Positions 4,132 to 40,695 of a stretch of DNA of 64,000 nt are shown in pieces. Source of the DNA: a virus. Below the pieces are notes generated by a model. The model had not been told where the DNA came from. It did no database searches and saw nothing but the letters and a program-made list of their open reading frames with translations. Both the position numbers and the translations under genes were made by a program. The stretch is from positions 1 to 64,000 of the IMG/VR virus record IMGVR_UViG_3300034170_000100. One strand, 5' to 3'. Every line of letters starts with the position of its first letter. Position 1 is the stretch's first letter.

Positions 4132-5385
4132 TTACGACAAGCTGTAGTTTGAGTTCAGAATCAGAGCTGCAAGCTCGTCTCCGTCCATTTGGTCTTTGTA
4201 AGTAGGTGTCATACCGGTGATCTGCTCGTAGATGTCCTCCAATACGCGAGCACGGGCCAGGTCGGCCATGATTTGCGCGTAAGTGAGACGCATCCAGTTG
4301 CAGTTATTGGCGTGGCACTTGAATTCATCGTGAACGGTGACGATCTCAAAGGGTTCGCGTTCCAGCAACTGGTTTGCCAATGCAACCATCTGATTAATGT
4401 GCTTATCAGACATGAATTGCACATCTGCACGGGTAAGCTCGTTGAGCAAGCGAGCATCGGGCATTTCACAGCCACCCCACACAGCAATGAGCTGTTGTGC
4501 AAGGTTGGAGGCTTCGCCCAAGTCTTGTTCGACTTCTTCACCCATACGACGACCATCTTGCATCCCGCCCAAGATATATAGGGCAGTTTGCACTTTGGTT
4601 TGATCGTAGTTGCAGCGGCGCTCCATAGAACGGAGCAGGTAGGCGTCCAGTGAGTGAGTCACATTGGCCACTAGCTTCAGGTCAGTTTTGGTGCCTTCGT
4701 TGACGTAATACTCGTAGGTGAACGAGGCGCCGTCGAGTTCATCGACTTCTACACGCTCACCTTCCACCTTCTGCATCACCTTGATGCGGACGTTGAAGTT
4801 GTCCGGGCACACCCAACGGTGTTCCAGGGCAAAGGGTTGCCACGCCATGCGCAGGTCACCCAGCAGTTCAACAGCCTTCGGGGCCACAGCCACCAAGCCA
4901 GCATAGAACGCATCCAGTTCCTCGGTGTCAGTACCGAAGATCTCACGCGGCTTGGCTTGGGAGCCGTACAGCGTGGTCATGGTTGCGTCTTTGGCATCTT
5001 GCCGGGTGACGATCAAGTCGCCATCCAGCATATCGCCAGCGGCGTTGGTGACCATGGTGTAGGCATCGTTCCGGGAATCCGGGTCGATCAGGTTTGTGGC
5101 CAGGCACCCTTTATGGCACTTGGTGACCACGGACATGATGCTCATGCCCGAGCAGGTCGCGTCCAGGCCAACCATGTGGCCGATAGCCTCGCCCTTACAT
5201 GCGCGGTACAGGGCGTTCACAGCCTTGAGGTACAGCGGACGTTCTTTCTTACTGGTTTGGAGGAATAGCAGGCGGTTGAAGTTATCTTTAACCCACTGAA
5301 CTCTTTCCTCAAACAGCTTCTTGTCCATATCTGCTTGGTTTGCGATGTCAATGCACAGAAAATCAAAGCTAGTGTAAAATTTCAC
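4132..5385 (-). CDS. RNA polymerase II, catalytic subunit (N4 gp16-like, T7-type)
   Basis: Motif A LDATCSG, motif B RQDAKDATMTTLYGS, motif C VHDEF. Confidence 0.93.
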   Translation of the reverse strand: MKFYTSFDFLCIDIANQADMDKKLFEERVQWVKDNFNRLLFLQTSKKERPLYLKAVNALYRACKGEAIGHMVGLDATCSGMSIMSVVTKCHKGCLATNLIDPDSRNDAYTMVTNAAGDMLDGDLIVTRQDAKDATMTTLYGSQAKPREIFGTDTEELDAFYAGLVAVAPKAVELLGDLRMAWQPFALEHRWVCPDNFNVRIKVMQKVEGERVEVDELDGASFTYEYYVNEGTKTDLKLVANVTHSLDAYLLRSMERRCNYDQTKVQTALYILGGMQDGRRMGEEVEQDLGEASNLAQQLIAVWGGCEMPDARLLNELTRADVQFMSDKHINQMVALANQLLEREPFEIVTVHDEFKCHANNCNWMRLTYAQIMADLARARVLEDIYEQITGMTPTYKDQMDGDELAALILNSNYSLS

Positions 5386-5404
5386 AGGAATATTCCTTAA
5401 TTAA

Positions 5405-5686
5405 TTAGGGTTTCAACATAAACCAGAGATTTATCATTTCCCGCCAGGGATGGCGATCAAATGTTGGGTAAACACCTATTTCTTTCAGCACATCTCCACA
5501 ATAGTAGTAATTTGTAGGCACCCAATGCATAAAGTAGCCAGAGTCCCCCTCGGTTACCACTATTGCATCACGTCCCCATTCTTGAGGCCACACTTCGTGC
5601 ACTCTTGTCCGTATTCCATGTTCTTGGGTCATTGTGGGTGAAATTATTTCGCGTTGAAACTCACCCTTATAAAATAACCAGCCCAT
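5405..5686 (-). CDS. hypothetical protein (93 aa)
   Basis: ORF between the RNAP II subunit genes. Confidence 0.6.
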   Translation of the reverse strand: MGWLFYKGEFQREIISPTMTQEHGIRTRVHEVWPQEWGRDAIVVTEGDSGYFMHWVPTNYYYCGDVLKEIGVYPTFDRHPWREMINLWFMLKP

Positions 5687-5694
5687 ATGGCCCC

Positions 5695-5985
5695 CTAATT
5701 GAGAATCATGTCAGCGAGTATCATTTGTTGCCCGCAAGGGTCTTCATTAAATGGAATGCAATTAACACGTACTTGTTTATTGCCCATTACGTTAAAGCTA
5801 CGTGCATCCCAGCATTGTCCGTCACTTACAATACAAACGTAAGTAACATCACAATTGTTTGGACTATACACCTGCAATTTGTGATCGAAGAGTACATGGC
5901 GGTCAAGGTAGAAAACATTGTTGTTAACACTGCTTTCTACCACACAGTCCACCGGTTTGTGCCGAATGAACAGTCTTGCCATCAA
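5695..5985 (-). CDS. hypothetical protein (96 aa)
   Basis: ATGA overlap with the upstream gene. Confidence 0.6.
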   Translation of the reverse strand: MMARLFIRHKPVDCVVESSVNNNVFYLDRHVLFDHKLQVYSPNNCDVTYVCIVSDGQCWDARSFNVMGNKQVRVNCIPFNEDPCGQQMILADMILN

Positions 5986-6422
5986 TCAGCCTCCAGCGGT
6001 TCGATATAATCGTCACGTTGCCGCTTACGCTTCTCGTAACCACGTTCGTCCATGATGTAGTCACCAATCTCGAATAATTGATGCAACTCCACAAGACTCA
6101 GTGTCATAGCGTTACCCATGTCGGTTATAACACCGAAATGGGAAGTACCTGTGTAGAAGATCATGGCATTGCCATTACGGCGAGGATTCCGGGTGTAAAG
6201 CTGTGCATATGTCACAGGTTCTTGTGCAATGTTGTGGGCAGATGCCCAATCAGGCAACGGGCCAAGGTCCAGTTCAAAGCACGCTAATGCTTCCTCAGCG
6301 TCAGCAATTTCCTTTTTTGTCTGGGCATTTGGCTCACCGCACCAGTCTCCCGATTCCATACCTGAACGGTATGGCTCCAGAATGTTCTTCAGTGCAAGGT
6401 ACAGCTGTTTGTCAGTGCTCAT
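5982..6422 (-). CDS. hypothetical protein (146 aa)
   Basis: ATGA overlap with the RNAP II subunit gene. Confidence 0.7.
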   Translation of the reverse strand: MSTDKQLYLALKNILEPYRSGMESGDWCGEPNAQTKKEIADAEEALACFELDLGPLPDWASAHNIAQEPVTYAQLYTRNPRRNGNAMIFYTGTSHFGVITDMGNAMTLSLVELHQLFEIGDYIMDERGYEKRKRQRDDYIEPLEAD

Positions 6423-7348
6423 AATTGAAACTCCTGGGGAATGTCGGATACGACTTCTTTATTGGCGAACTCAAGCATTGCCTTTTTGTAAGGCGCGCCT
6501 TGAGTCGAGATGTGATAACCATTGGCGTAGATACGCCCACGTTTATCGTACTTGTGGTGCAAGTAGAACTTATTGCCTTGGCCGGCCATGAGCAAGTAGA
6601 ACTCGTGCGATTGGCGCTTCATGTTCAACCACATGGTTTGCTTCTCGGGAGTATCCAGCTCGCTGTTTGGTTCTTCCTCCACTTTGCAGAGGAAGTCCAG
6701 ATCCAGGCTCAATGCCACTGAATTCTTCGAATCCAGCACATCAAGGCACACATCGTCGTTGTGGTGACCCTTATTCAGTATCACCGAGTCTTGACCGATG
6801 GTCAGGTACGGCGTGTCCTTGTTGTGGCGCAGCTTTTTAGGTGGATGCACCAGCGGAGGCAGATATGCACAATTGCTGATGTACTCCTGCAATTGCAAGG
6901 ACAGCGTGATGTTGCTGATGATATTCCAGCTGCCGAACCGGTTGGCCTGGGTCAGGTCATACAGATCGGTGTCGCACAGCACCGCGGTTATTTCCGCAAT
7001 GGTGGTGATGCTGGCCTTCTTGTCGTCCCAGCCGAGTATGCCGGCCATGCGAGCTGTGAAGCTGGTGAACAGTTCTTCCACCTGGCAGAAGGCCGAGGCC
7101 ACGACCAGATCAGTAACGAGCTGACGCAGGTCCATGCCTCGGAGGGCACTGACCCGGAGGTTCTTCGATGCATAGCTGAACTCGGTATTGACCCAGGCGG
7201 TGAGCAAGTCCACGCCTTTGTCCAGCAGGGGCAGGACTTCAGGGTCGTTCAGCACGTAGTCACGCATGTACTTGTCGATATGCTGTTTGGCAAATCGATA
7301 CTCGTTTGCCTTTTGCATGTCGTCAGTGAGCATGTGTGTCAGTTTCAT
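6419..7348 (-). CDS. RNA polymerase II, N-terminal subunit (N4 gp15-like)
   Basis: T7-type DxRGRxY motif (YDKRGRIY); GGAG RBS; synteny. Confidence 0.92.
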   Translation of the reverse strand: MKLTHMLTDDMQKANEYRFAKQHIDKYMRDYVLNDPEVLPLLDKGVDLLTAWVNTEFSYASKNLRVSALRGMDLRQLVTDLVVASAFCQVEELFTSFTARMAGILGWDDKKASITTIAEITAVLCDTDLYDLTQANRFGSWNIISNITLSLQLQEYISNCAYLPPLVHPPKKLRHNKDTPYLTIGQDSVILNKGHHNDDVCLDVLDSKNSVALSLDLDFLCKVEEEPNSELDTPEKQTMWLNMKRQSHEFYLLMAGQGNKFYLHHKYDKRGRIYANGYHISTQGAPYKKAMLEFANKEVVSDIPQEFQL

Positions 7349-7358
7349 GGATCTTCTC

Positions 7359-7616
7359 CTAATCTACGAGCATACGTGCAAATAGCACTTCTTTTGGTAC
7401 TTTTGTGGTGTATACCCATGCAGGGCCATTACCTTTGCTGTCACGATGCAACACATTCCACACAGTTCGCTCCCCTCGTGGAGATCCACGCATTCCGATA
7501 ACTTCTTCACGGAATACCTGACCTTTGTGGTAGTTTTTGTGCGTGTAGTACGGATGTTCGGAAAAAGACTCCGTAACCTCGACAGAATCATCGAATTTCA
7601 GAATGAAGATACGCAT
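7359..7616 (-). CDS. small early protein, shared C-terminal motif family
   Basis: ends KVPKEVLFARMLVD; AGGGG RBS before ATG 7616. Confidence 0.7.
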   Translation of the reverse strand: MRIFILKFDDSVEVTESFSEHPYYTHKNYHKGQVFREEVIGMRGSPRGERTVWNVLHRDSKGNGPAWVYTTKVPKEVLFARMLVD

Positions 7617-7623
7617 ACGTCCC

Positions 7624-7869
7624 CTACAGCAGCATTGCTGCCAGTTTAATTTCTTCTGGTGCATCTTCCACGGTTAACCAACGGTTTCCCGTATAAAGCT
7701 GCAAAGTGCCTAGAATTGCGGTGAGTCTGTAAACCTTTGTGGCCATACAGCCTTGAAGCTGTTTTGCCCTGCGTGCGCCGTCATACCAGACGACAGACTC
7801 AGACTCAATCTTGCCATGATAGAGCCAAATTAACGTGACATGTGCATACATACTCACTTCTGCTCTCAC
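7624..7869 (-). CDS. small early protein, shared C-terminal motif family
   Basis: ends DAPEEIKLAAMLL. Confidence 0.72.
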   Translation of the reverse strand: MRAEVSMYAHVTLIWLYHGKIESESVVWYDGARRAKQLQGCMATKVYRLTAILGTLQLYTGNRWLTVEDAPEEIKLAAMLL

Positions 7870-8141
7870 TCGCGCATCAGCGCAACCATTCGTACAATTT
7901 CAGGAATTTGCTCCGGCCAGGCCGGCAATAACGCAGCGTATGTACCAACTAGGCCAGAAGTTGCGCCTGTTTTGGTGCTGCGCTGTAAAACACGCCATTG
8001 GGGAACATCTCCGCCTTCTGAGGCGAGACGGTATACCTCCCCAATAGGGAAATGTATCTCCATGACTTCGGAGTTCATCCAGGTGGTGGTAACGTCGGTT
8101 ATTTCACCGTCAAGCACACCTATGATCAGCTGATAGCTCAT
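7866..8141 (-). CDS. small early protein, shared C-terminal motif family
   Basis: ends QIPEIVRMVALMRE; ATGA coupling. Confidence 0.75.
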   Translation of the reverse strand: MSYQLIIGVLDGEITDVTTTWMNSEVMEIHFPIGEVYRLASEGGDVPQWRVLQRSTKTGATSGLVGTYAALLPAWPEQIPEIVRMVALMRE

Positions 8142-8446
8142 TCGAGAACCTCCACCATTTTGACGATTTCAGGGATGGCCATGCAAGCAGACCAGCCTAT
8201 TCCGGTTGGATCGCCATATCCCCAACGGGACATGTCTTCCCAGTAGAAATAGTTGACGAACCACATAGATCTTGTTGCAGGGAGCTTATTGAAACGCATT
8301 ACGTCTTCAGTACGACGACTGAAGACGTTTCCCTGCTTATGCTGGTAAAACTTTTCCCAGTGAGGCTTAGAATCTGCTTCAATAGTTTCAAATGCTTCAA
8401 TCAGTGCAGATTTATCGTCATTCAGGATGACCCACAGAATACTCAC
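8138..8446 (-). CDS. small early protein, shared C-terminal motif family
   Basis: ends AIPEIVKMVEVLE. Confidence 0.75.
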   Translation of the reverse strand: MSILWVILNDDKSALIEAFETIEADSKPHWEKFYQHKQGNVFSRRTEDVMRFNKLPATRSMWFVNYFYWEDMSRWGYGDPTGIGWSACMAIPEIVKMVEVLE

Positions 8447-8733
8447 GGTTTCACCACGTTCATCATCAGGATCAGCTGAGGAACAGCTGGCTTACCCACA
8501 GGAGTGAATTTATGCCTGCCGTCTGCGTAGCAATAGTCACCTTTGAACCAAGTTCCCTGCTCAGTAAGCAGAAATACAATAGCAAATGGATCTTCATCCT
8601 TAGCCTCACGGGCAATCTTCAGGTTTGTCTTATAGTATGTGCAATGACATACTTCCGGTATATCGTTCACCACAAGGAACAAAGTTCCCATGCTGAACTC
8701 CCCGAAGGGAGCAGCGCGTTCGAAAGTCCTCAT
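8443..8733 (-). CDS. small early protein, shared C-terminal motif family
   Basis: ends AVPQLILMMNVVKP; alternative start at 8691. Confidence 0.7.
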   Translation of the reverse strand: MRTFERAAPFGEFSMGTLFLVVNDIPEVCHCTYYKTNLKIAREAKDEDPFAIVFLLTEQGTWFKGDYCYADGRHKFTPVGKPAVPQLILMMNVVKP

Positions 8734-8945
8734 TCGAGCATCACCATTGCTAATTTGACCAGGGCAGGTACGTCACACTCCGCTACTGCGTAATAGTTTT
8801 GCATTTCAGGCGTCCAACGTGACCAATGAGCCCCGCGCAGATTATAAACTTCCATATCGTCACGGATGTACGGAATGTGCAGAATCAGCACATCGAGCAC
8901 GAGTTCTCCTGTCTCACGACAGTAGCCAACTTTTTTCAGGCTCAT
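8730..8945 (-). CDS. small early protein, shared C-terminal motif family
   Basis: ends DVPALVKLAMVMLE. Confidence 0.75.
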   Translation of the reverse strand: MSLKKVGYCRETGELVLDVLILHIPYIRDDMEVYNLRGAHWSRWTPEMQNYYAVAECDVPALVKLAMVMLE

Positions 8946-9208
8946 TCGCTCACCATTACAGCAAGACGCACCATTTCAGGTACTTCTGCCTCAAGAAGGT
9001 AGTGAGGGCTGGCATAGGGGTAACGGAGCACCCACCAGCCGGTGACAGTGATACCGTCATAGCAGTAGGTCCACGAGGTGTCGAACAACGAGCACATGCC
9101 ACTGTCTACGACCATTTGCTTCTCGTAATCCCACAGGATTTTGATAGGCATATTGCCCCGGGCAGGCTCGAAGGGATCTTTTTTCCATGGGTCCATGTAA
9201 TCACTCAT
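8942..9208 (-). CDS. small early protein, shared C-terminal motif family
   Basis: ends EVPEMVRLAVMVSE. Confidence 0.75.
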   Translation of the reverse strand: MSDYMDPWKKDPFEPARGNMPIKILWDYEKQMVVDSGMCSLFDTSWTYCYDGITVTGWWVLRYPYASPHYLLEAEVPEMVRLAVMVSE

Positions 9209-9459
9209 TGAATTAACAGATACGCCATGCGTACTGCCTCCGGTAGTTTGCTGTACTCGACAGCGATGGCGTCATGGGCAATGCCATAGACGTACCACCG
9301 CGTATCTTTGAGGTCACCGCTGACAGAATGGAACAAGGCGTAGACCTGTTCCTGATCGGCGCCCGGGCGTCCTACCCAATGGGTGGCCGCCTCCATCAAC
9401 TCCTGCCTGATCATATGGTATCGAGCGGACATGATCATGGTGCTCACTCCGGTCTCCAC
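9205..9459 (-). CDS. small early protein, shared C-terminal motif family
   Basis: ends KLPEAVRMAYLLIQ. Confidence 0.72.
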   Translation of the reverse strand: METGVSTMIMSARYHMIRQELMEAATHWVGRPGADQEQVYALFHSVSGDLKDTRWYVYGIAHDAIAVEYSKLPEAVRMAYLLIQ

Positions 9460-9881
9460 ACCTGGACGTTGGCCGGCAACCGATCAAGCATCTGGTTTAC
9501 CAGGGTCTCGATCTGCTGGGTGCCAGGCCACTCCAGGGCATATTGCTTTCCTGGGTTGTCCTCTGCCTCGTCTGCCAGCAGGCGCAGGCCAGTAGACAGA
9601 ATGGAGATGCTCACCCCTTGCCGAGGCGCCTGGCTATGCTGTAGCATGCCAACCTTCCCCGAGACACGAAGGTAGAACTCACCTTCACTGCCACACTCCC
9701 CCGCGATCCACGCTCCCATCTTCACCTTTAGGGTAGGGTATTTAAGACCCAACGCCCCGGCCAGACCATTTAACATTATTAGCTCATTGTTCTCACTTCT
9801 GAGCTTACTGCCAACAGATATGATGAAATGATCGACTTTGTCGAAGATACTCATCATGTCACCACGAATTACCTGTTTCAT
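9444..9881 (-). CDS. degenerate macrodomain-like protein
   Basis: MKQVIRGDMM start, IMLNGLAGALGLKYP and YALEWPG resemble macrodomain (ADP-ribose-binding) landmarks. Confidence 0.55.
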   Translation of the reverse strand: MKQVIRGDMMSIFDKVDHFIISVGSKLRSENNELIMLNGLAGALGLKYPTLKVKMGAWIAGECGSEGEFYLRVSGKVGMLQHSQAPRQGVSISILSTGLRLLADEAEDNPGKQYALEWPGTQQIETLVNQMLDRLPANVQVWRPE

Positions 9882-10009
9882 CGTAAAATCTCCGCAGTTC
9901 GTACCATTTCAGGTACATCCTCAGTTCTTGTGGTATCCCAACGAGAGAATCGCAGCTCTGCATGTTCATTGTGCAGCCTGTTTAGCAGCCACAGCAAACA
10001 GATGGTCAT
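9878..10009 (-). CDS. 43-aa early protein, shared C-terminal motif family (not in ORF track)
   Basis: Hand translation MTICLLWLLNRLHNEHAELRFSRWDTTRTEDVPEMVRTAEILR*; ATGA overlap with the next gene. Confidence 0.65.
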   Translation of the reverse strand: MTICLLWLLNRLHNEHAELRFSRWDTTRTEDVPEMVRTAEILR

Positions 10010-11160: not shown

Positions 11161-11505
11161 TTACACCAGATCCAGCATCGACTCTTCGTCGGTACGGGTC
11201 GCGTTGAAGCTGAAGGTCAGCTTGGAAGCAACGACACCGAGACGACGTGCTTTTTCAGCAGCCATACCTTCGACCGAAGCGGTCTTGGCAAAGTCAGCAT
11301 CGCACGCCTGGGACACCGAGAGGTACGCAGCCAGTTGCTCATGCTGCTTGTTGCCTTCGATGAAACGGATACCTTCCAGACGCACAGGTGCGCCAGCTTT
11401 GGTCTCGATGTTCACGTTGAAGAACCCGAGGGTTTTCTTCGCGGTACGATCAGCAGCAGTGGAGGTAGCAGGGGCAGTACGGGATGCATTACGTTCAACA
11501 GCCAT
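11161..11505 (-). CDS. probable N4 gp2-like ssDNA-binding transcription activator
   Basis: Ala/Thr-rich N-terminus then DRxxKxxLGFFNVNI, similar to the gp2 N-terminal pattern; early position, strong codon bias, upstream hairpin promoter. Confidence 0.5.
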   Translation of the reverse strand: MAVERNASRTAPATSTAADRTAKKTLGFFNVNIETKAGAPVRLEGIRFIEGNKQHEQLAAYLSVSQACDADFAKTASVEGMAAEKARRLGVVASKLTFSFNATRTDEESMLDLV

Positions 11506-11550: not shown

Positions 11551-11574
11551 ATTGCCTTTAAAGGGCCGAAGGCC
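11551..11574 (-). promoter_or_regulatory. candidate vRNAP hairpin promoter
   Basis: template (+) strand GGCC-GAA-GGCC, C:G-closed GAA triloop, preceded by AATTGCCT as at 13954. Confidence 0.5.
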
Positions 11575-11845: not shown

Positions 11846-12106
11846 TTAATTGGGTACGGCCAGCTTCATACTGACAGTCATGCCCGACATAACTGCTGCA
11901 TGATGCAGAATTTCGAAGGACATTTCGTCTTCTTTGAAGTTTGCGATCTTACAGATCGTAGGAATGCTTACATCGAAGATTTCAGACGCTGTCTTATAAA
12001 GCAGTGTATTTGCATTGATATGCGAGCGGATTTCACTCGCAATGATGTGTTTCATATCCTTCAGACACAGAGATGCGAAGGTTTCGAACTTGTTTGCAGT
12101 GGGCAT
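11846..12106 (-). CDS. HTH (XRE/Cro-like) protein
   Basis: YKTASEIFDVSIPTICKIAN HTH pattern; GAGG RBS. Confidence 0.6.
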   Translation of the reverse strand: MPTANKFETFASLCLKDMKHIIASEIRSHINANTLLYKTASEIFDVSIPTICKIANFKEDEMSFEILHHAAVMSGMTVSMKLAVPN

Positions 12107-12207
12107 AGACACCTCAGTTAGCTTACCGCCAAGGCCCAAAAGGGCCACATAGGCGTATGGTTTTCATCGCCGAATATGGCACTTTCTGTATTCTTGAAAT
12201 ATAGGTA

Positions 12208-13981: not shown

Positions 13982-14233
13982 CTATGTAAGCATTATTGCA
14001 AGTTTGATCAGATCGGGTACATCAGCATAATCTATGCGAGTGTCCCCTTCGTGTTCAAATACAGGAAGCAGTACATACCAACCTTCAACGAGATATTGGA
14101 TAGCCCCTGGCCAATAGTAGGCTATACCACGATATTCAATAAGCAAATACGCTATTTGATGCGCAGTTGGCACACCATTGGGGAATGGGAGTACAGAACC
14201 GTCAGCCAATAGCATGTATTCATACATATTCAT
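13982..14233 (-). CDS. small early protein, shared C-terminal motif family
   Basis: ends DVPDLIKLAIMLT; paralogue of 14237-14464. Confidence 0.75.
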   Translation of the reverse strand: MNMYEYMLLADGSVLPFPNGVPTAHQIAYLLIEYRGIAYYWPGAIQYLVEGWYVLLPVFEHEGDTRIDYADVPDLIKLAIMLT

Positions 14234-14236
14234 ACC

Positions 14237-14464
14237 TTACTCCAGCATGGCTGCAAGTTTGATTACAACAGGCAGTTCATCATAGGTTATTTGCTTGTTA
14301 CTCACTTTTGGCGATGTATTAGTAATGCAATTCCAGTTAAAGGTATGGTTGTGCCAGTAATAAGCAATACCATCATAATCAGCCATAGCACCCATAACAT
14401 CTTCATGCATGGCCAGATTGTCGAAGGGTTTTACAGACCCGTCACGAAGCAGCATGTATTCCAT
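14237..14464 (-). CDS. small early protein, shared C-terminal motif family
   Basis: MEYMLLRDGSV..GIAYYW..ELPVVIKLAAMLE; GAGG RBS. Confidence 0.75.
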   Translation of the reverse strand: MEYMLLRDGSVKPFDNLAMHEDVMGAMADYDGIAYYWHNHTFNWNCITNTSPKVSNKQITYDELPVVIKLAAMLE

Positions 14465-30558: not shown

Positions 30559-33500
30559 ATGGCAAACGGCGATAACAACTTCGGTTTTGACGAATTGTTC
30601 CCTGCCGGCCTGCCTGCTGCAAAAGAAGGGGCGTTCAAGCCCCTTTTTGACCTTTCAGCGAAAGCTGAGTCGGTTGCGGCAGCTTCTGAAGAAAAGAAGC
30701 AGACTCTTATCGGGAAAATGGGTTATGACGCCGAAGATACCGTGGGCACCATCGCTAACTATGGTGCTCGCTTTGCGTCCGGTCTAAGTCGCCAGGTTCT
30801 TGGCAACTTGGCTACCCTGCCTCTCGATGTGATTTCTGGCCTGGCCCAAGGGTCCGTTCCTGAAGAACAAGTGCAAGCGTTCAACCGCATGCAAACCAAT
30901 CAAGCAAGTGACGCGGATATGGCTCTGTTGAACCAGACTGCACCACTTGATGACGGTATCCCGCAGACTTACCTTGAGCGCCTGCAAGGCACCCAGGGCA
31001 TTCAAAAAGTTGCGCAGAATGTCGGTGATTTCTTCGACATCTCTAGCATTGTGGACACCACCCGCTCCGAGCGACTGAGCCGCGATATTCGTGAAGCTGC
31101 TGGCGATGGTACTGCGCAGCTGCGCGGCGCCAAAGAAGCCTTCAACGAAGGCCAGTACCTGGAAGCTGCTGGTGAAGGTATCAAGGGTCTCGGCAATACT
31201 GTTGGCCCTGCTTTGCTTGCTGGTTTGCAGTCTCCTGTCGCTGCCGGTGAATACGTCGCAGAGAACATCCCTCAGATCGTTGCTGCTGCTTACAACCCAT
31301 CCATTCTGGTTGGTACCAACGCCGGCTACGGTTATGACACGTACCGTGAAGGTATCCGTGACTACGCCAAGAAGAACGATGGTCAACTTCCAAATGCCGA
31401 CGAGCGTGCGACCATGGGTCTGTTCGCTGCATCGGCTGCTGGTGCTGAAGTAGTTGGCGATGTTGGGCTGCTCAAAGGTATCCGCGCTGCGGGCACCGGC
31501 TCTGGCAACAAGGCAATGAGCGCTGCTATGGGCATTGGTGGGGCCGCTGCACGCGAAGGCGTGACTGAGGGCTACCAGACCTATGCTGAGAACCGTGCTC
31601 AACTGAAAGACACCACGTTGGAAGATATCGTCGAAGGAGCCACCATTGGTGCGCTGGTTGGCGGTAACTTTCAACTGGCTGCTGAAATTGGTGGGGGACC
31701 GAAAGGTGATGCTGCACCTGCCAGGAAAAACGCTGTAGAAAACGCATTTACTTCCGCTGTGGAATCCGGTGATGTTTCATCCCTGACCGACAGCACTTCT
31801 CCTGCATATAGCCCGGTGCGCGCTGTTGAAGCCCTGCATCAGATGAATCTGCAAGATGGTGCCAAGGCCGAGGAAAACCTCGCTCAAGTCGACCGTATTC
31901 AGCAAGACGTGACAGCAGACCTGTCTTCGATCCAAGCCCGTATGGAATCCACTACGCCTGAGCGTGTGGCCCAGATCGGTGCGCTTGTTCAACAAATGGA
32001 AGTCGCAGGTTCCGACCAAGCCGACATTGCTGAAATGCGCCAGATCCACGAAGCTGTATCGTCGTACACGCCTGCCCAACGTAAGGCTGATGAAACTCGT
32101 GCTGCTCAACTGGAAAGCCAGCTGAGTGAGATTCACACTGCTGCCGAGCGCATGCGCGTAGACGCCAGCCCTGAGCAGGCTGATGTTCAAGCGCTTGCAA
32201 CCGATGCACAGACAGGTGATCAACAAGCGGTTGACCGTTTGCTGACCCTGACCATGACCAATCCTGAAGCCGTCGACACCTCGGTCGCTGAGTCTCTTGC
32301 ACAGAGCGAAGCCTTGACCGAGCCGCAACGTAACGCTATGCGCCTCTTCACAGAAGCACAGGTGGCCGCTAATGCCTTGAAGGGCATGCGTGGTGTTAGT
32401 TCGGAAATTGCCACTGGTGGCGATGGTTTCAAGGGTATCTCGCAATATCGCAATGCAATCCGTATGGCCCTGGCCAATGGCAATGAAAGCGCCGCCCGCT
32501 CGCAAGTCGATGGCGTTCGTGCTTTTGCTGCTAGTCGTGTATCGAAACTGGAAGCTATCACCGCTGCTTATGAGCAAGTGAAGGGCACAGACAACTCGAT
32601 CAACATCGTGCGGAATGAGCAAGGCGAATGGGGTCCGACTTCCTTGAAGGGCACAGCTCTCAAGAAAGCCAAAGGTCTGGTAGTTGATGCCCGTTCCTTC
32701 AACCTACGCGACGGTGTAGCTACTGAAGCGGACGTGTTAGCAAAAACTGCTGATGCATTCGAAGCTATGGTAAATGCTGCTCCATCTCCTGTATCGCAAC
32801 CGGTTGTGCAACCGACTGCGGATCAGGGTGAAGTTGCCGCTGCAACCCCTAAAGCTGATGCAAACGCCCCAGTTGACGCAGCACCGGTAGCTCCGGTCGC
32901 TGAACAGACTGCTGCGCCTGCACCTGCTGAAGAAGTTGTGGCAAAGCCGGAAGATGCCCCGAGCGTGACCGAGAAGGCTCCTGCAAATGCAGGCCAGCTC
33001 ACCACAATCGGCGAGCGAACCGGTGAAGCGGTAACCGCGGACAACTACCGTTCTGTCAATCTGGTTTCCGAGCTGTTCGACCAAAAGGTCGGCTCTGACA
33101 CCGATGCAAGCGTTCGCCCGCTGGTAGCTGTCAAAGACTTCGCTTCGGCCATTAAAGCCGGTGAAGTAACCGTGCAAGACTTCCTTACCCAGGAAGGTCC
33201 ACTGCCGGCCCCACAAGTCACGGCACTCAATGCATTTTTCAACTTTGCTCAATATTCTGAGCAGGCAATCCGCAACCAGTTCAAGGTCACTGCTACTCGT
33301 GCCAAACGCCCGGACTTCTTCTATCGGGACATGGCGCAGTTCATGCAGAACGCGGACGGCCAAATTGACGAGAACTTGGCGACTGCCGTGTCTTACGGCA
33401 TGTTCTCGTGGGCAAACGAAAACGCAACTCAACTGCGTAACAGTCCTGAGTCGATCAACACTATTCTGATGCGCGACCTGGACGATGAAGTCTCCAATGC

Positions 33501-36500
33501 TGCGTATGCGGCGCTATCGGCTATCGGTACACGAGAGTCGGTCGTCGCTTCGCAGCTTGGTGGCCGCATCCTGCAAGCCCTGGGCCTCCAGGTAAATCAG
33601 AACGGTACTCGTGCTGAGCTGAGTAAACTGGAATCGTCCGTAGGCGAGCGAGCCATTGCTGCCATGGTCAAGTTGGGTTTGGTAGAACGTACCCAACTCG
33701 CGGACCAAAAACTGCAAGTGCTGATGGGCAAAACTGAATTTGATCCTAAACTGACCCACAACTTCGTTGTTGTGAAGTCGGTGACCGATGCTGAAGGCAA
33801 ACTGCAACCGGCACCGGTTGTGAAGCGCATTCGTGAGCGTTCGGTGGGTTCCCAGTCGGTTGTGTCCAAACTGTTTGCAGTAGAGGCTGCTGGTGTAGAG
33901 CCGAGCTACAAGCCGATCCCCTTCACCCAAGAATTCGCTAAACGTACTAGGCAAGCTGTGCCTAAGACCCTGGCCAAGATTTTGGACAAGGAAGGTGCAA
34001 AAGCTCACGTTGTTCGCCAGAACATGTGGCACGTTTGGGGCAAACTGAGCAAGCAGGCTCTCTATGAAATGGGCGGCGTGGTCTCGACCACCGATGCACC
34101 AACTCACGTTGAGAACCTGGCTTCACGCCAGGCGAAGAATGATGGCCTGATCCAACAAGTGGACAACTTCGACGCATTCGTTAACGCGATGACCGCCGAT
34201 AGCTCGACTGAGGGTCTGGACCAATCGTTGTACTTCGGCCGCTCCGTTTGGAAACCTCAACGTGTTGGTTTGACTGCAAACGTGATCAACCCGCAGACTT
34301 CGAAGATCCACCGTCACATGCTGGCCATGTCCGGTTGGAATGCTACCGTCAACCTCGACAACAAAGCCGAGATGGACAACTTCAAGCTCCGTGTGTTGGA
34401 AGCGTTCGGCAAGAAGACCGAAGCAACCACTACCGCCAAAGTGTTGGCCGGCTACGATGCTGTCGTGTCCAACCCTGCAATTCAGGCTGGTATCGACGCG
34501 CTGGCTGAAGTCCTGCGCGACAATGGCACCGTGAATGAAGCCGCTATCGTCGACGCTGTAAAAGCGGCCGGCGAGAAGTTCCATTCCTTCGATGCGCTGG
34601 TTGCCTTGGCTGAGCAACGTATTGCCGAGCAAGATGGCAAGCCTGCGTTCGAAACCGCGATGATGGGTGAAGTGGACGGTGTAACCAACGGCCCTATGCT
34701 GTCCCTGCTGATGCTGGGTGCCAAAGGCTTTGAAACTATGAACCAAGGTGGTTTCTTTGAGCTGGGTAGCCAGTTCACACAGTTCAACGACTACAAGGCC
34801 CAGGGCAACCTCGACCTGTACGAGTCGAACATCGCTCAGGCACTGAACCGCCTGCAAGGTCGCCAGCAAGGTCAGCTCGACGCTATGTCGGTCATCACTG
34901 GCCAACTGCAAACTGCCGAAGGCAACGTGACCTCTAAAGGCCGTAACATTATCAAGAAGCCGCTGACCGCCCTGATGTTCGGGTCCAACCCGACTACCGC
35001 GGTACAAGGCATGGCCGACGGCTTCATTGAAGCGATCTACAGCCGTATCGAAGATGCAGCTGCTGCCCGTGACAATGATGCAATCGCCCCCTTGTTTGGT
35101 GCTGTGAATACCCTGACTCGCTCGCCGAAGTTCGCTTTGGATGTGAAGATGGGCTATGAGCGTGCCCTGGAAACCAAGTTGACTACTCAACAGCAAGACG
35201 CGCTGAAACGCTCGTTCTATGAGTTGCTGGGTGAGCCGACTGAGAAAGCTCTGGCCGACAACTACGCTACCTTCATCGCTCGCCGGAACGTGATCAACCA
35301 GACAGCACAACTGTCGTTTGACCTGTTCAACGCTGTGCGTGATGGCGTGACTGAGTTCGTTGAGTCGACCAGCCAGGATGTGCCACGTAACAATGCTGGC
35401 GCCGCCATTCGCACGCTGACTAAAGAGCAACAGGCACAAGTAGATGCACTGATGGGCGACATGGCCCCGATCCTGCAAACTGCTATGTCTCAGGCATCGA
35501 AGCAACGTGAAGCTGGTATGTACATGGCCAAGTCGAAGCGTTCGCTCGATTCGTCTGCTGCCTACGAGCAAGAAGTCGCTTTCGGTGAAATGGTTAACAC
35601 CATTGCCCCGGACGGCTCCATGCAGGGTATCGGCTCGACTCGCCTGTCGTCTTCGCGCACTCAGGACATCGACCCAGGTGTAATGCCTTTCATTACCTCC
35701 ATTCACTCCAGCGACTCGGCTATTGCCTCGACTGTGTACGGAATGATGGAAGCACTGAACGTTCACGACGCCTTGGGCGTAGACCTGAACAATGTGGCCA
35801 AGGTTGGCCAGGAGCTGAACAAAGCGACGTTCAACACCATGCTGGAATACTCGTCCGCGACCGCAATGAGCAACATGCTCGATGAAGTCCTGGCCGGTGT
35901 ATCCAAAGTGATGCAGAACCCTGAGCTGGCTGCACGCATTCAGCCTAAGCTGCGCGAGAAGATGGTTGCCCGGGCTGAGAAGAAGCGTGGCTCTATTGCT
36001 GAGCAACTGACCGCTATTCGTGAGACTGCGACCCAGGCGGACACCGATAAGCTGAATATGCTGAGCAACATGCAGGCAATCGGCCAATACGCTACCGACG
36101 GCGGTTCTTACATCGTGACCGACGCTGACCGTGCAAAAGCACAGGCCAAGTTGGACGAAGTGGGTTCCACCTTCAATGCTGCGGCTGAATCTGTGGCTGA
36201 GCAACTGGACGCCGAAGCAAGCATCGTCTCAGCTGTGTATGTTGCAGGCAAGCAAGCTGAGCTGTCCAACACGTCGGTAACGACTCTGGCGCCGGCCACT
36301 TCTCTCAATACTCTGGCTTCGCTTGAGCAGACCCCGGCTGTTGTGCAGGTAATTGATTCCATGGTTTCGGGTAACCGAACTCTGGCCGATGCCCTGCAAG
36401 TTCTGCCTGAGCATCAAGCTGCCGAAGTAGTTGAAGCGGTAAATGGTGCAAGTGAAGCGAAATTGTCTGTATGGGGCCGCTTGGGCACCCCTGTCGTACA

Positions 36501-39500
36501 GTCCGACGTGAACTTGGTGCAACTGCTGGACACCACGGGCATGACTGCTCACAACCTCGTTGATTCGCTGGTTGAGTACGTACAGAACCCGTTCCAGAAG
36601 ACTGTGCTCAAGATGGCCAAGAAAGGCATCTCTGCTCGTATGCCGGTGACCTACATCACTGCCGAGACCGGACCAGAAGGCGCATTTGGTGAAGGCGTAG
36701 ACAAATCCCGCGGTTGGTACGCACAGCGTAACGACCAAGCCGGGTTGTTCATTAAATCCCCGGACTTCGTTGAATCGGGTATCACCCCTGAGCTGCTGAC
36801 CCATGAACTGGTGCATGCTGCTCTGGCAAACCTGATCGACGCAAACCAAGGTAAGAACACCCTGGCCGGCCGCGCTGTAGCGGATCTGGAAGTGCTGCGT
36901 ACCCAAGCTGAAGACTTCCTCGCCAACAATGGCGCCCTGTCTGCTAAGTACCGCAACGCCACGTCGAACGTGCATGAGCTGGTCTCCTGGGGCCTGTCCA
37001 ACCAAGACTTCCAACGTGAAGTGCTGGGCCAGGTATCGGTGCCACAGAAAGACCGATCGATCCTCGACGGCCTGAAGGGTTTCATCAAGTCGCTGACTGA
37101 AATGCTGTTTGGTGCCAACACTCCGTCGGCAAACAACGGTATGGCCAACTTGATCGCCAACTCTGCTGTTCTGTTCCGTGAAGCGGCCCAGGCGCAAGAG
37201 AAGCGTGCGACTGCAACCCACAAGTACGAAGACGCCATCGACCACATCAACGCTATGACTGCTGAGCAGGTGTTTGACGCTCTGGCTACCGTAGGCAACC
37301 ACAAGACTGATGTGGTCCATGCTGAGTACCTGCGTGACCTGTTGGCGCAGACTGTTAACCCGGTCTACGGCCCATACGGCGCATTCAAAGAGGCAGCATC
37401 GGCAAACCGTGCGCTGACCCCGCTGGATGTGTTCCTGAAAGCGGTGAGCACCGGCCAAACTCCGTTCAGCTCCCAGGCAACAGCCGGCCAGTTCATCCTG
37501 TCCCAGCAAGAAGCATTTGTGCTGGAATCGGTAGAAGCGACCATTTCCCACGCCATGGAAACGAAAGAAACTCTGTTCGTTCGCCAGGGTCTGGAAAACC
37601 TGTTCAAGGAGGCACGTTCGAAGCTGAACCCGGACGGGCGCAACTTGCACGCTGGCGATTGGGCAACCGCAAGCCAGAATGAGAAGGATGTCGCTAAAGC
37701 GAAGTGGGACTTCCTGTTCCGCCCACAAGTGAGCGCAACTGGTCGCAACAATTACTTGGCACGCTTTGCTGCCCTGGGCCTGGCCTCGGCCGAAGTCCGT
37801 AATGCACTTGGTTTCTCGACCAACAACTTCGAGACCCCGTTGAAGGGTCTGCCGATCACCAGCAAGCTGACTGAGTTGTTCCGTCGGGCAATGACAGTCT
37901 TTGCCCGCCTGGCAACCAAAGTCATCCCTGGCACCTCGGGCAACGTCGCACTGAGCACTCTGGTAGAGCAACTGGTGGACATCGAGGCCAAGCGTAAAGC
38001 ACGCATGGACCAGGAGAAGGTGAACCACTTTGACCAGCTCGAAACTGCGCTGGCCGGTGTGGGTGACTCCATCCTGGAAAAAGCTGATGCACTAGGCCGC
38101 GCCGGGTTCATTCGCAAGTCGAAGATCCCGTTTGTCGCCGGTCTCGGCGCTGTGGTATCCACCGCTGCCGGTAACCGCCTGGATGCGGTACTGAATGCCA
38201 TCACAATGATGCGCGATCAGTCTCAAAAGAGCCGGCACGGTGTGGTGATGGGCATGCTGACCGAATGGCGCGGTGTGTACGATTCTCGCCGTTTGGCTGC
38301 TGAATTGTTCAAAGGTGCCAAGGCCAACGAGCAACAGCGCAAATCGGTTATCGAGACCACTGCTGCATCGGTAAACGAAGCATTTGCAAACCAGGGCCAA
38401 GATTTGACCCAGGTGCAACGTGATGCGCTGACTCGTGTGTTTCTGCGGACCAATGCCCAGGCAATCGCCGCTGCTCGTGGTGTCGACGGACTGCGCGACC
38501 TCATGGAAGACCCTGCTGCAATGGCGGCATACCGTTCAGACTTGGAAGCACAGGTAACTGCGCTGACTCCGAACTATCTGTACATGATCAGCCAGGCCAA
38601 AGACTTGGCGCACCACAAGGTGGTGGGCGGCTCGACTTCGGCCAACCTGATGCTGTCGACCGGCAACATTGCGGCCATGTTCGGCACCAAGAAGAAAGTT
38701 GCTGCCAATGCCGCGGTTATCACGCTGCTTGAGCAACTAGTGGGCGTATACGGCCTGGACTACAGCGGTGATGTCGATCTGCGCAATGCTCGTGAAGTTC
38801 TGCGCACTGAGATGAATCGTACCGACGGCAACGGCGTGGACTACATGCTGAAGCTGCACACTGGTCTCCAGGCCAAAGCAACTGCTGACCTGTTCAAAGG
38901 CACCGAAGCGCTGCAACAGACCGGCTATGTGGCGGAGATCCACGACAACAAGATCGAAGTCTTGCTGGTAGCCAAGAGCGACGTAGCTGCACACGAGCGC
39001 GCCGGCTACATCGTGGGCACTGCCCTGCAAATGGACCCGAATGTGAAAGGTCTGAAAACCACAGGCCGTGTACTGATGACTCGCCGTAGCGCCGGTCAAA
39101 CTGCGCTGCTTACTGGTGCCATGTCTTTCACCGGCAACAATGCCAAGGGTTCTAGCCCGGTCACCGAAGCTGTCAACATGATGGCCGGCAACCAGACCTC
39201 TGCCGCTGTACGTCAGCAGATTGCACAGCAGAAGGCCCAGGCAGTGGCTGATTTGTTCCACCGCCCATTGTCTTACGACCCACGCAAGGCACAAGCTGGG
39301 CACATGGTCCCCACCCTGGCGCCTGACGGCCGAATAGCTGACTACCGTCACATGATGACCGAACAAAACCGCGATGTCCTTTTGGACCGCGATAATTCGA
39401 TGGATCAAGTGCTGGGAGTCATGGCTGGTCAAATTGCTGACAAAGTGTCCACTGTTCAACAGAACACTGACGTTGTTCGCTCGATGTATGATCAATACCG

Positions 39501-40695
39501 CGCTGACTACACTTCGCGCCCTTCTTCGTACATTCGTGTGTCCGCGGACAGCAAAGACAAAGGTTTGGCCGAGACTTATCGCCTGTTGCCAGAAAGCACC
39601 AAGCAAGAGATCCGCAAGGTATGGAAAGACGACGCAATGTATGTGCCGGCTGACCAACTCGATCTGATCTTTGGCTATCGCAAGTTCAGCCTGACCAATT
39701 CGTTTGACGAATTGCCAGGTGACCGCAACATGTTTGAAAAGGTGCTGGTTGCTGCTACTTCTGCGATCTACGGCGAGAAAGCTGCGCTTCGCGTAGGTCA
39801 AGCTGAAGACATCATGCAAACCCTCGTTAAAGAGATGAAAGACATTCTTGTTGTTAAGAACATCTTCACTCTGGCGGGCAACATCACGTCGAACATGACA
39901 TTACTGGCTTGGGAAGGTGTTCCATTGCGGAAGGCCGCGGCTTCTCACGCTATTGCTATCAAAGGTGCAATCGATTTCCGTAAGGATTCGAAACGCCTGC
40001 TGCAATTGCAACAAGCTGTAGAAATTGGGTACTTCGCTGATAACACTGCTGCTGGGGCAGAGATTCTGGAAATTCAGGATCGTTTGGCACGTAACCCGAT
40101 CAAACCATTGGTGGATGCAGGCTTGATGCCTACTATCGTGGAAGACGTTGAAGTTGATGACGACCGCTACACCTACAAAGCTCACTTGGCCCGTAAGGTG
40201 GAGAAGTTCACTGATAAGGTTCCAGCTTGGATGCGTACTGTCGGTAAACAGGTCTACATGACCCATGACACCGCCACGTATAAATTCTTGAGCCAAACAA
40301 CTCAGTTGTCTGACTTGGTGGCACGTTATGCGCTATTTGAGCACTTGACTACCCGCACGAAAGATCCTCTGAGTGTTGCTGATGCTTTGCACCAAGCTGA
40401 GGACAGTTTCGTAAACTACGACCTGCCTTCGCACCGCACACTGCAATATCTGAACGATATGGGCATTGTGATGTTTACCAAGTACTACTTGCGTATTCAG
40501 AAGGTGATCATGCGTCTTGTGCGTGAGAAACCTGTACGTGGTCTGATGTTGGCAGCAGTTGGTCATATGTGGGCCGGTCTGGATTCCATCATGGATTCCA
40601 GCTGGCTCAACAAGATTGGCAACAATCCGCTGCAAGATGGAGCACTTGGTTACCTCGGCTCGTTGAAAGAGCTGCCAGCAATCAAGTTCCTGTAA
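30559..40695 (+). CDS. virion-encapsidated RNA polymerase (N4 gp50-like)
   Basis: 3378 aa, no Cys seen, motif A EVDGVTNGP, motif B RNIIKKPLTALMFGS, motif C NVHDA. Confidence 0.96.
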   Translation: MANGDNNFGFDELFPAGLPAAKEGAFKPLFDLSAKAESVAAASEEKKQTLIGKMGYDAEDTVGTIANYGARFASGLSRQVLGNLATLPLDVISGLAQGSVPEEQVQAFNRMQTNQASDADMALLNQTAPLDDGIPQTYLERLQGTQGIQKVAQNVGDFFDISSIVDTTRSERLSRDIREAAGDGTAQLRGAKEAFNEGQYLEAAGEGIKGLGNTVGPALLAGLQSPVAAGEYVAENIPQIVAAAYNPSILVGTNAGYGYDTYREGIRDYAKKNDGQLPNADERATMGLFAASAAGAEVVGDVGLLKGIRAAGTGSGNKAMSAAMGIGGAAAREGVTEGYQTYAENRAQLKDTTLEDIVEGATIGALVGGNFQLAAEIGGGPKGDAAPARKNAVENAFTSAVESGDVSSLTDSTSPAYSPVRAVEALHQMNLQDGAKAEENLAQVDRIQQDVTADLSSIQARMESTTPERVAQIGALVQQMEVAGSDQADIAEMRQIHEAVSSYTPAQRKADETRAAQLESQLSEIHTAAERMRVDASPEQADVQALATDAQTGDQQAVDRLLTLTMTNPEAVDTSVAESLAQSEALTEPQRNAMRLFTEAQVAANALKGMRGVSSEIATGGDGFKGISQYRNAIRMALANGNESAARSQVDGVRAFAASRVSKLEAITAAYEQVKGTDNSINIVRNEQGEWGPTSLKGTALKKAKGLVVDARSFNLRDGVATEADVLAKTADAFEAMVNAAPSPVSQPVVQPTADQGEVAAATPKADANAPVDAAPVAPVAEQTAAPAPAEEVVAKPEDAPSVTEKAPANAGQLTTIGERTGEAVTADNYRSVNLVSELFDQKVGSDTDASVRPLVAVKDFASAIKAGEVTVQDFLTQEGPLPAPQVTALNAFFNFAQYSEQAIRNQFKVTATRAKRPDFFYRDMAQFMQNADGQIDENLATAVSYGMFSWANENATQLRNSPESINTILMRDLDDEVSNAAYAALSAIGTRESVVASQLGGRILQALGLQVNQNGTRAELSKLESSVGERAIAAMVKLGLVERTQLADQKLQVLMGKTEFDPKLTHNFVVVKSVTDAEGKLQPAPVVKRIRERSVGSQSVVSKLFAVEAAGVEPSYKPIPFTQEFAKRTRQAVPKTLAKILDKEGAKAHVVRQNMWHVWGKLSKQALYEMGGVVSTTDAPTHVENLASRQAKNDGLIQQVDNFDAFVNAMTADSSTEGLDQSLYFGRSVWKPQRVGLTANVINPQTSKIHRHMLAMSGWNATVNLDNKAEMDNFKLRVLEAFGKKTEATTTAKVLAGYDAVVSNPAIQAGIDALAEVLRDNGTVNEAAIVDAVKAAGEKFHSFDALVALAEQRIAEQDGKPAFETAMMGEVDGVTNGPMLSLLMLGAKGFETMNQGGFFELGSQFTQFNDYKAQGNLDLYESNIAQALNRLQGRQQGQLDAMSVITGQLQTAEGNVTSKGRNIIKKPLTALMFGSNPTTAVQGMADGFIEAIYSRIEDAAAARDNDAIAPLFGAVNTLTRSPKFALDVKMGYERALETKLTTQQQDALKRSFYELLGEPTEKALADNYATFIARRNVINQTAQLSFDLFNAVRDGVTEFVESTSQDVPRNNAGAAIRTLTKEQQAQVDALMGDMAPILQTAMSQASKQREAGMYMAKSKRSLDSSAAYEQEVAFGEMVNTIAPDGSMQGIGSTRLSSSRTQDIDPGVMPFITSIHSSDSAIASTVYGMMEALNVHDALGVDLNNVAKVGQELNKATFNTMLEYSSATAMSNMLDEVLAGVSKVMQNPELAARIQPKLREKMVARAEKKRGSIAEQLTAIRETATQADTDKLNMLSNMQAIGQYATDGGSYIVTDADRAKAQAKLDEVGSTFNAAAESVAEQLDAEASIVSAVYVAGKQAELSNTSVTTLAPATSLNTLASLEQTPAVVQVIDSMVSGNRTLADALQVLPEHQAAEVVEAVNGASEAKLSVWGRLGTPVVQSDVNLVQLLDTTGMTAHNLVDSLVEYVQNPFQKTVLKMAKKGISARMPVTYITAETGPEGAFGEGVDKSRGWYAQRNDQAGLFIKSPDFVESGITPELLTHELVHAALANLIDANQGKNTLAGRAVADLEVLRTQAEDFLANNGALSAKYRNATSNVHELVSWGLSNQDFQREVLGQVSVPQKDRSILDGLKGFIKSLTEMLFGANTPSANNGMANLIANSAVLFREAAQAQEKRATATHKYEDAIDHINAMTAEQVFDALATVGNHKTDVVHAEYLRDLLAQTVNPVYGPYGAFKEAASANRALTPLDVFLKAVSTGQTPFSSQATAGQFILSQQEAFVLESVEATISHAMETKETLFVRQGLENLFKEARSKLNPDGRNLHAGDWATASQNEKDVAKAKWDFLFRPQVSATGRNNYLARFAALGLASAEVRNALGFSTNNFETPLKGLPITSKLTELFRRAMTVFARLATKVIPGTSGNVALSTLVEQLVDIEAKRKARMDQEKVNHFDQLETALAGVGDSILEKADALGRAGFIRKSKIPFVAGLGAVVSTAAGNRLDAVLNAITMMRDQSQKSRHGVVMGMLTEWRGVYDSRRLAAELFKGAKANEQQRKSVIETTAASVNEAFANQGQDLTQVQRDALTRVFLRTNAQAIAAARGVDGLRDLMEDPAAMAAYRSDLEAQVTALTPNYLYMISQAKDLAHHKVVGGSTSANLMLSTGNIAAMFGTKKKVAANAAVITLLEQLVGVYGLDYSGDVDLRNAREVLRTEMNRTDGNGVDYMLKLHTGLQAKATADLFKGTEALQQTGYVAEIHDNKIEVLLVAKSDVAAHERAGYIVGTALQMDPNVKGLKTTGRVLMTRRSAGQTALLTGAMSFTGNNAKGSSPVTEAVNMMAGNQTSAAVRQQIAQQKAQAVADLFHRPLSYDPRKAQAGHMVPTLAPDGRIADYRHMMTEQNRDVLLDRDNSMDQVLGVMAGQIADKVSTVQQNTDVVRSMYDQYRADYTSRPSSYIRVSADSKDKGLAETYRLLPESTKQEIRKVWKDDAMYVPADQLDLIFGYRKFSLTNSFDELPGDRNMFEKVLVAATSAIYGEKAALRVGQAEDIMQTLVKEMKDILVVKNIFTLAGNITSNMTLLAWEGVPLRKAAASHAIAIKGAIDFRKDSKRLLQLQQAVEIGYFADNTAAGAEILEIQDRLARNPIKPLVDAGLMPTIVEDVEVDDDRYTYKAHLARKVEKFTDKVPAWMRTVGKQVYMTHDTATYKFLSQTTQLSDLVARYALFEHLTTRTKDPLSVADALHQAEDSFVNYDLPSHRTLQYLNDMGIVMFTKYYLRIQKVIMRLVREKPVRGLMLAAVGHMWAGLDSIMDSSWLNKIGNNPLQDGALGYLGSLKELPAIKFL

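Follow-up and report, generated by a model that had tools for sequence, protein, structure and literature searches.

A multigene family of small proteins with a conserved C-terminal segment in the early region of an N4-like Pseudomonas phage

The first 64,000 nucleotides of the IMG/VR virus record IMGVR_UViG_3300034170_000100 (the whole of this stretch is called the window below) carry eleven minus-strand open reading frames (ORFs) that end in a common motif. These ORFs form a real multigene family with a C-terminus conserved at the protein level, located in the early region of an N4-like phage. It is a new, previously undescribed protein family of a familiar kind, that of viral multigene families which consist of early ORFans and which expand and contract. 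An earlier note, made from the sequence alone, had described its members as variable "warheads" mounted on a portable C-terminal tag, an interpretation which, as a whole, is partly supported by the present analysis. The explanation favoured here, to which slightly better than even confidence is given for all of its parts jointly, is that the members would be lineage-restricted, fast-diverging, small (70-115 residues), single-domain proteins from the early region of N4-like Pseudomonas phages, diversifying on one scaffold. The "tag" would then be the final helix of a small fold common to all members and a core element of it, rather than a portable module, and the variable surfaces would bind different host or phage targets.

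The eleven ORFs of this 75-kb genome, like the up to 14 copies in its relatives, are without annotation anywhere. The family offers a confidently predicted fold without a recognised solved relative, as well as a clear example of how phage genes can multiply at a fixed locus and diverge quickly in all but one helix.

The common C-terminus and its reality

Eight coupled ORFs occupy positions 7359-9459, a 43-residue remnant lies at 9878-10009 and two further ORFs, which alignment shows to be recent paralogues of each other, are found at 13982-14464 (Table 1). All eleven end in V-P-[ED]-x-[VI]-[KR]-[LM]-A-x-[ML]-[LMV], and each was recovered with the position, strand and terminal residues that had first been described for it. 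The motif followed by a stop codon occurs at exactly 11 sites in the six frames of the window, compared to 0.16 per shuffle. Without the stop requirement, there is one further, internal match, at 63732. The pattern was fitted to these data and its count is partly circular; a hidden Markov model (HMM) of the family was therefore built as an independent check. This profile separates the 11 ORFs (E 1e-23 to 1.5e-5) from the next ORF of the window (E 0.9), and over the whole genome it reveals no copy beyond the eleven. By profile match and motif C-terminus, all 11 belong to a small-protein family of the genus Shizishanvirus. The motif is conserved at the level of protein, as the earlier note had claimed: 123 of the 232 pairs of identical motif residues are encoded by different codons, and the nucleotide identity of the motif is 52%.

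Translational coupling links the eight genes of the array, through 4-nt ATGA or GTGA overlaps or, before the last gene, across an 8-nt gap. The longest ORF of the first array gene reaches 7664, yet its probable start is at 7616. In the coupled copies, the final residue is dictated by this arrangement (GAA-TGA, GAG-TGA, CAA-TGA or CCG-TGA). The possibility that the next gene, through its ribosome-binding site or start codon, imposes the motif was considered and rejected, as this would account for the last residue only: the motif is also retained in the pair at 13982-14464, which is not coupled.

Over 164 distinct sequences, the motif reads V(65%)-P(100%)-[E55/D30]-x-[V48/I46]-[K43/R29/L20]-[L57/M30]-A(82%)-x-[M63/L19]-[L65/M18/V12], followed by 1-4 residues, and its information content is about 29 bits. 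Helix positions -1, +2, +3, +5, +6, +8 and +9 are hydrophobic in 83-100% of the sequences, and only +1, +4 and +7 are polar or variable. Seven of the 11 positions are thus hydrophobic, all around the helix, and the segment has a single basic residue and one or two acidic ones. Within groups of orthologues, the helix is more conserved than the remainder of the protein in 13 of 14 cases, with identities of 0.58-0.94 versus 0.35-0.78.

The remainder of the protein also shows common traits. At least 90% of members have a Trp residue about 20 positions ahead of the Pro, an N-terminal hairpin of the form "hydrophobic strand, D/N-G, strand" recurs among them, and blastp with the N-terminal parts alone gives weak yet collinear matches across groups. 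When a profile of 81 members was compared with 1.84 billion representative proteins, 84 matches were obtained at E <1e-3, of which about 80 are proteins of 71-115 residues aligned over profile positions 21-97, i.e., end to end. The four long matches consist of multiple stretches outside the motif and look spurious. The dissimilarity of the N-termini emphasized in the earlier note holds for pairwise identity between groups (about 13%) and for N-terminal hhalign comparisons (below 50%), yet the profile, the Trp residue and the structural models described below point to a single domain. The proposal of variable modules on a portable tag is not supported, in view of the full-length profile matches, the recurrent Trp and hairpin, the same order of elements in two models, and the hydrophobic character of the helix.

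Distribution and divergence of the family

The nearest GenBank relative of the window is Pseudomonas phage phCDa (Schitoviridae, Shizishanvirus; host P. fluorescens), which alone matches the family among 50,697 GenBank phages. Its 14 copies (phCDa_27-29 and 38-48), all annotated as hypothetical proteins, belong to the same family, with the same genome positions and motif, and their models in BFVD match the family models at template modelling (TM) scores of 0.81-0.86. The two phages differ in copy content, and phCDa contains groups 9, 19 and 20, which are without counterpart in the window. As a cultured relative growing on P. fluorescens, phCDa is available for experiments. Seven IMG/VR contigs are related through RNAP1 (the RNA polymerase II small subunit), and the part of each that was examined codes for 4-14 copies. 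Altogether, 82 members could be assigned to about 21 groups of patchy presence, only two of which occur in all eight genomes, and sampled database members reside on contigs of up to 70-75 kb.

Searches for known relatives gave little. The one member that was searched (14240-14464) had no close relative in a collection of bacterial and archaeal genomes. With E values up to 1 admitted, ten window members matched no Pfam family except for a single chance match, and 128 members matched no recurrent one; PHROGs likewise yielded no recurrent family among members. The best E in a sequence-profile search of PDB was 0.24, and the ESM Atlas provided no lead. The absence of a functional description, noted earlier, still stands: none was found in Pfam, PHROGs or PDB, or in the literature searched.

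More distant relatives occupy the same place in other N4-like phages. A search of BFVD with the model of the group 1 member recovered a protein of phage Littlefix (E 8e-3, probability 1.00, TM 0.64/0.71), and a second Littlefix protein was matched by Foldseek (probability 0.87, TM 0.53-0.58). Further matches of this model occur in 98PfluR60PP, which, like Littlefix, is a Littlefixvirus, and in phi176 and MAG4. In Littlefix itself (L015, MG775260, 6740-8992), gp49-52, gp55 and gp56 are encoded on either side of the phosphatase-like gene, ahead of RNAP1; all six are recognised by the family HMM (E 2e-6 to 2e-2, marginal for the weakest members) and end in P-x-x-[VL]-[KQR]-M-x-x-L-[VI]-G-x-x. The IMG/VR contig L009 (RNAP1 67% identical) codes for four small ORFs upstream of RNAP1 (4940-6524) which end in P-K-[ED]-[IL]-x-L-x-x-x-L-L-G-[DE], two of the four matching the family HMM (E 2e-5 and 1e-4). 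The Littlefix and L009 ORFs thus share the place of the window family, but differ in their versions of the helix, are fewer in number and bear a weak sequence relation to it.

In Litunavirus (Ab09, LIT1, PEV2 and others) there is a single probable relative with a longer N-terminal part, exemplified by Ab09 ORF17 (117 residues, ending LVPPEIRAQSLLFD), directly upstream of RNAP1 at the position of the array. Its hhalign alignment with the family (81% probability, E 1e-5) is confined to 42 C-terminal columns, which cover the Trp strand, the next strand and the helix, and the protein is recorded as "hypothetical protein" in 72 records. The single copy at the same locus gives the family the appearance of a fixed-locus expansion, from one copy in Litunavirus and six in Littlefix to up to about eleven in the present lineage, where two or three more copies are located several kb upstream.

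The variant of the helix is specific to each lineage and common to all of its paralogues: Shizishanvirus members have PE.V[KR][LM]A.ML, and L009 and Littlefix have versions of their own. In comparisons restricted to the N-terminal parts, five matches surpassed all 300 shuffles, compared to about 0.55 expected over 165 tests. Littlefix gp50 weakly resembles group 9, located upstream of the phosphatase gene, and gp55 and gp56 weakly resemble groups 5 and 3, located downstream of it in the same order as in the window. These hints, weak yet consistent with gene order, suggest marginally that some paralogue groups may predate the lineages.

The family genes are real and under purifying selection, as judged from the ratios of nonsynonymous to synonymous substitution (dN/dS) of 0.16-0.47 in orthologue groups (dS about 1-1.8), and they evolve 3-6 times faster than RNAP1 (0.07; dS 1.04). 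Between the window and the close relative L002 (RNAP1 99% identical), the array is 77% identical and its flanks 92-94%. Two segments of the window, 7663-7865 and 8983-9204, have no detectable nucleotide similarity to L002, reflecting localised replacement or divergence. In addition, about 650 bp of L002 (L002:6776-7425) are deleted in the window, with the junction at 9960; the lost bases encode one whole 135-residue member (group 9) and the first two thirds of a 112-residue group 4 member. The 43-residue ORF, which the earlier note had added as a ninth member of the array, exists and carries the motif, yet by this alignment it is a deletion remnant of a group 4 member and not an intact gene.

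Similar behaviour is known from other viruses. The poxvirus host-range families and the multigene families (MGF) of African swine fever virus (ASFV) are tandem arrays of paralogues with fast divergence, gain and loss, and early expression. The likeness to these families, and to the early ORFan host-takeover proteins screened in phage LUZ7, is by analogy only, and no relation of sequence or fold to any of them is claimed.

Predicted fold and the role of the helix

Two members that are highly divergent were modelled with AlphaFold2. The group 0 member at 14240-14464, modelled from an alignment of group 0 only, gave a predicted local distance difference test (pLDDT) score of 83.8 and a predicted TM (pTM) score of 0.68, with the order β-β-α-β-β-(β)-α (strands 2-6 and 11-14, helix 20-29, strands 32-39 and 43-48, helix 66-74). 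For the group 1 member at 8446-8733, modelled from the family-wide alignment, the values were 85.2 and 0.76, and the order β-β-α-β-β-β-α (strands 14-22 and 25-33, helix 34-47, strands 52-56, 62-68 and 73-79, helix 86-94). The modelled group 1 member is only 8-14% identical to the two group 0 members of the window, yet the order of elements is the same in both models, and in each the motif forms the last helix, among the best-modelled parts (pLDDT of the block 81-96). Agreement was also found with the BFVD models of phCDa paralogues that belong to other groups and were built independently, at TM 0.42-0.62 and with a probability of 0.94-0.99 for the group 1 model and of 0.69 for the single such match of the group 0 model. 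Both models also match the same third paralogue.

Comparison with solved structures yielded weak matches. The best E of Foldseek against PDB was 0.83, and an exhaustive structural comparison with VIA-align gave best Z scores of 4.4 and 4.9, in a range (below 8) which the guidance of the tool regards as uninformative. Small α/β proteins of similar size, namely AcrIF9 (7chr), T4 Dmd (5hy3), p56 (8ail/2le2) and RnlB (6y2p), scored Z 3.2-3.6, far below the level of a shared fold, and have no sequence similarity to the family. A weak or missing match in PDB does not prove that the fold is new. A mutual-information analysis of contacts on 48 sequences was too noisy, the helix being too invariant to help.

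According to the favoured explanation, all members would adopt a compact α/β fold consisting of the hairpin β1-β2, helix α1, strands β3-β4(-β5) and the C-terminal helix. The latter would pack as a core element against the sheet and α1, which would explain its retention while the surface diverges; it is probably buried on more than one side, between the sheet and α1, because it is hydrophobic nearly all round and leaves only a narrow polar stripe (+1, +4, +7). The family would owe its size to tandem duplication at one locus, which lies upstream of RNAP1 and surrounds the phosphatase-like gene, with copies gained, lost and truncated between close genomes. Each copy would present a different surface on the same scaffold, and the paralogues may, as a diversified set, bind host (or phage) proteins early in infection, so as to take over the host or counter its defences. 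The arsenal of host-takeover or anti-defence proteins put forward in the earlier note is thus a plausible candidate role. If the paralogues do bind different host targets, they would constitute a ready-made panel for the discovery of such functions in Pseudomonas. The earlier note had also foreseen, as an outcome adverse to its own proposal, one ordinary shared fold in which the helix is a buried structural element; the AlphaFold models come close to this, the burial itself being what we infer from the sequence pattern.

Several observations weigh against this explanation. Profile comparisons between groups on the N-terminal parts only are weak, as given above, and the family-wide alignment used for the group 1 model could bias it toward a common fold. 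The helix residues (Pro 100%, Ala 82%, Glu/Asp 85%, Lys/Arg 72%) are conserved more strictly than the upkeep of a fold alone usually needs, and the presence of a lineage's own helix variant in all of its paralogues would also fit a common partner. The burial of the helix is deduced from its hydrophobic pattern, and the part in host takeover or counter-defence is likewise a plausible extrapolation.

Some of these same observations would be expected if the helix acted, in addition to or instead of its role in the core, as a docking surface shared by all members for one partner, such as the adjacent RNA polymerase II or a host hub, with the variable remainder of each protein providing the specificities. 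The 10-14 divergent early proteins might then engage a single hub through the helix and co-evolve with it lineage by lineage, as a combinatorial adaptor system, and docking to a common hub would represent a new modular adaptor principle. The conservation of the helix far above the rest of the protein, within groups and in information content, suits such docking, as does the variant held in common by all paralogues of a lineage. If the paralogues predate the lineages, as gene order hints, the helix must have changed in concert, which would argue for a common partner, and recent gene conversion is an unlikely source of the uniformity because the codons differ. Those hints of orthology are, however, statistically marginal, and independent expansion in each lineage from one ancestral gene, such as Litunavirus retains, explains the same pattern of variants without a partner. 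Moreover, the helix is about two thirds hydrophobic with a narrow polar stripe, it is confidently modelled within a compact domain, and no larger or unrelated protein was seen to carry the motif, either in this genome or among the profile matches. Docking is regarded as the main rival explanation, at a minority probability. The lineage-specific variants would equally fit mutual co-evolution of the paralogues themselves, if the helix mediated their homo- or hetero-oligomerisation, for example by pairing across a dimer interface, so that mixed oligomers were formed from the many co-expressed, translationally coupled copies. The hydrophobic arc is wider than one face packed on a sheet, and the conserved small residue at +6 (Ala, often with Ala at +7) would permit close contact between helices. 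The second hydrophobic face can nevertheless be accounted for by helix α1 of the same chain, and Litunavirus keeps a single copy, so that oligomerisation appears improbable.

The earlier note had further considered a targeting or degradation signal, and this is now judged very improbable, the variable residues after the motif and the pattern of charge and hydrophobicity being opposed to it. The position of the motif at the extreme C-terminus, and copies that end in LAAML-type sequences, recall the ssrA-type degron of ClpXP. Such a degron is defined by a constant extreme C-terminus of the LAA-COOH type, whereas here the motif is followed by 1-4 variable residues with differing terminal ones (D, L, E, P, Q, R or T); since the overlapping start codon also sets the last residue, there is no constant free C-terminus. 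Membrane-targeting C-terminal helices of the MinD/FtsA type are one-sided amphipathic helices of net positive charge, but the present helix is hydrophobic all around, lacks a one-sided pattern and has a net charge of about zero or negative. The form D-V-P-x-h-h-[KR] superficially resembles the FtsZ tail D-I-P-A-F-L-R, which raised the idea of a mimic of the FtsZ C-terminal peptide (D-I-P-x-F-L-[RK]). The E. coli FtsZ tail, taken from NC_000913.3 and scored on the family matrix, reached -2.2 bits compared to a family mean of 29.6; its first seven positions scored 5.2 bits versus a mean of 17.1, and 32 of 18,912 random 7-mers scored as high. The models, which place the helix within a confidently folded domain, also stand against a signal of any of these kinds.

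The locus and its neighbours

The virus record from which the window is taken is 74,794 bp long and has direct terminal repeats. The window belongs to an N4-like (Schitoviridae) Pseudomonas phage, and codes for both subunits of the N4-type RNA polymerase II (6419-7348 and 4132-5385) and for a virion RNA polymerase of 3378 residues (30559-40695). The array is located in a leftward-transcribed block upstream of RNAP1, which is the early region by synteny with N4-like phages.

Table 1. Members of the family and two landmark genes of the locus (window coordinates)
Feature	Position	Strand	Length (residues)	HMM match	C-terminal end	Remarks
RNAP1 (RNAP II small subunit, N4 gp15-like)	6419..7348	-				Context; directly downstream of the array
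Family member, group 7	7359..7616	-	~85	E 2e-11	KVPKEVLFARMLVD	Length from ATG at 7616; last gene before RNAP1
Family member, group 3	7624..7869	-	81	E 1.5e-5	DAPEEIKLAAMLL	GTG start overlaps upstream stop
Family member, group 8	7866..8141	-	91	E 1.4e-10	QIPEIVRMVALMRE	
Family member, group 6	8138..8446	-	102	E 5e-10	AIPEIVKMVEVLE	Trp-rich insertion
Family member, group 1	8443..8733	-	96		AVPQLILMMNVVKP	AlphaFold model ma911b0b63b4d
Family member, group 2	8730..8945	-	71		DVPALVKLAMVMLE	Group found in 8/8 genomes compared
Family member, group 5	8942..9208	-	88	E 1e-7	EVPEMVRLAVMVSE	
Family member, group 10	9205..9459	-	84	E 7e-8	KLPEAVRMAYLLIQ	First in coupled run; overlaps end of phosphatase-like gene
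Phosphatase-like early gene	9444..9881	-	145			Context; matches phrog_335 "phosphatase"; landmark flanked by the array
ORF, apparent 3' remnant of group 4 member	9878..10009	-	43	Limited to profile positions 73-101	DVPEMVRTAEILR	
Family member, group 0	13982..14233	-	83	E 3e-19	DVPDLIKLAIMLT	
Family member, group 0	14237..14464	-	75	E 1e-23	ELPVVIKLAAMLE	Length from MEYMLL; AlphaFold model m84d0368333bf

Early expression of the family genes would follow from this synteny together with hairpin motifs in the block. Hairpin cores of the form CCGAAGG are over-represented in the window (18 versus 7 expected), and those at 11566, 13971, 14495, 15310 and 15451 (plus-strand text) are flanked by complementary bases which would form short hairpins upstream of leftward genes. 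The one at 14495 is just upstream of the gene starting at 14464, and two of the hairpins have CAATTGCCT nearby in common. They are candidate N4-type early promoters.

The phosphatase-like gene is conserved in Litunavirus and Littlefix; the C-terminal end of its product is nearly identical to that of Littlefix gp53, and the protein resembles Ab09 ORF16. Two ORFs between the RNA polymerase genes (5405-5686 and 5695-5985), as well as Ab09 ORF19-21, have C-termini similar to those of the family by eye, and were set aside as unrelated (hhalign at most 1%). A protein of 114 residues (11161-11505, minus strand) matches phrog_6271 "toxin" (E 8e-12) and is syntenic with the Ab09 ORF12 "toxin". Finally, a protein of 100 residues (11846-12148, minus strand) gives a weak match to HTH_37 (E 0.003, below the Pfam cut-off), and is possibly an early transcription regulator.

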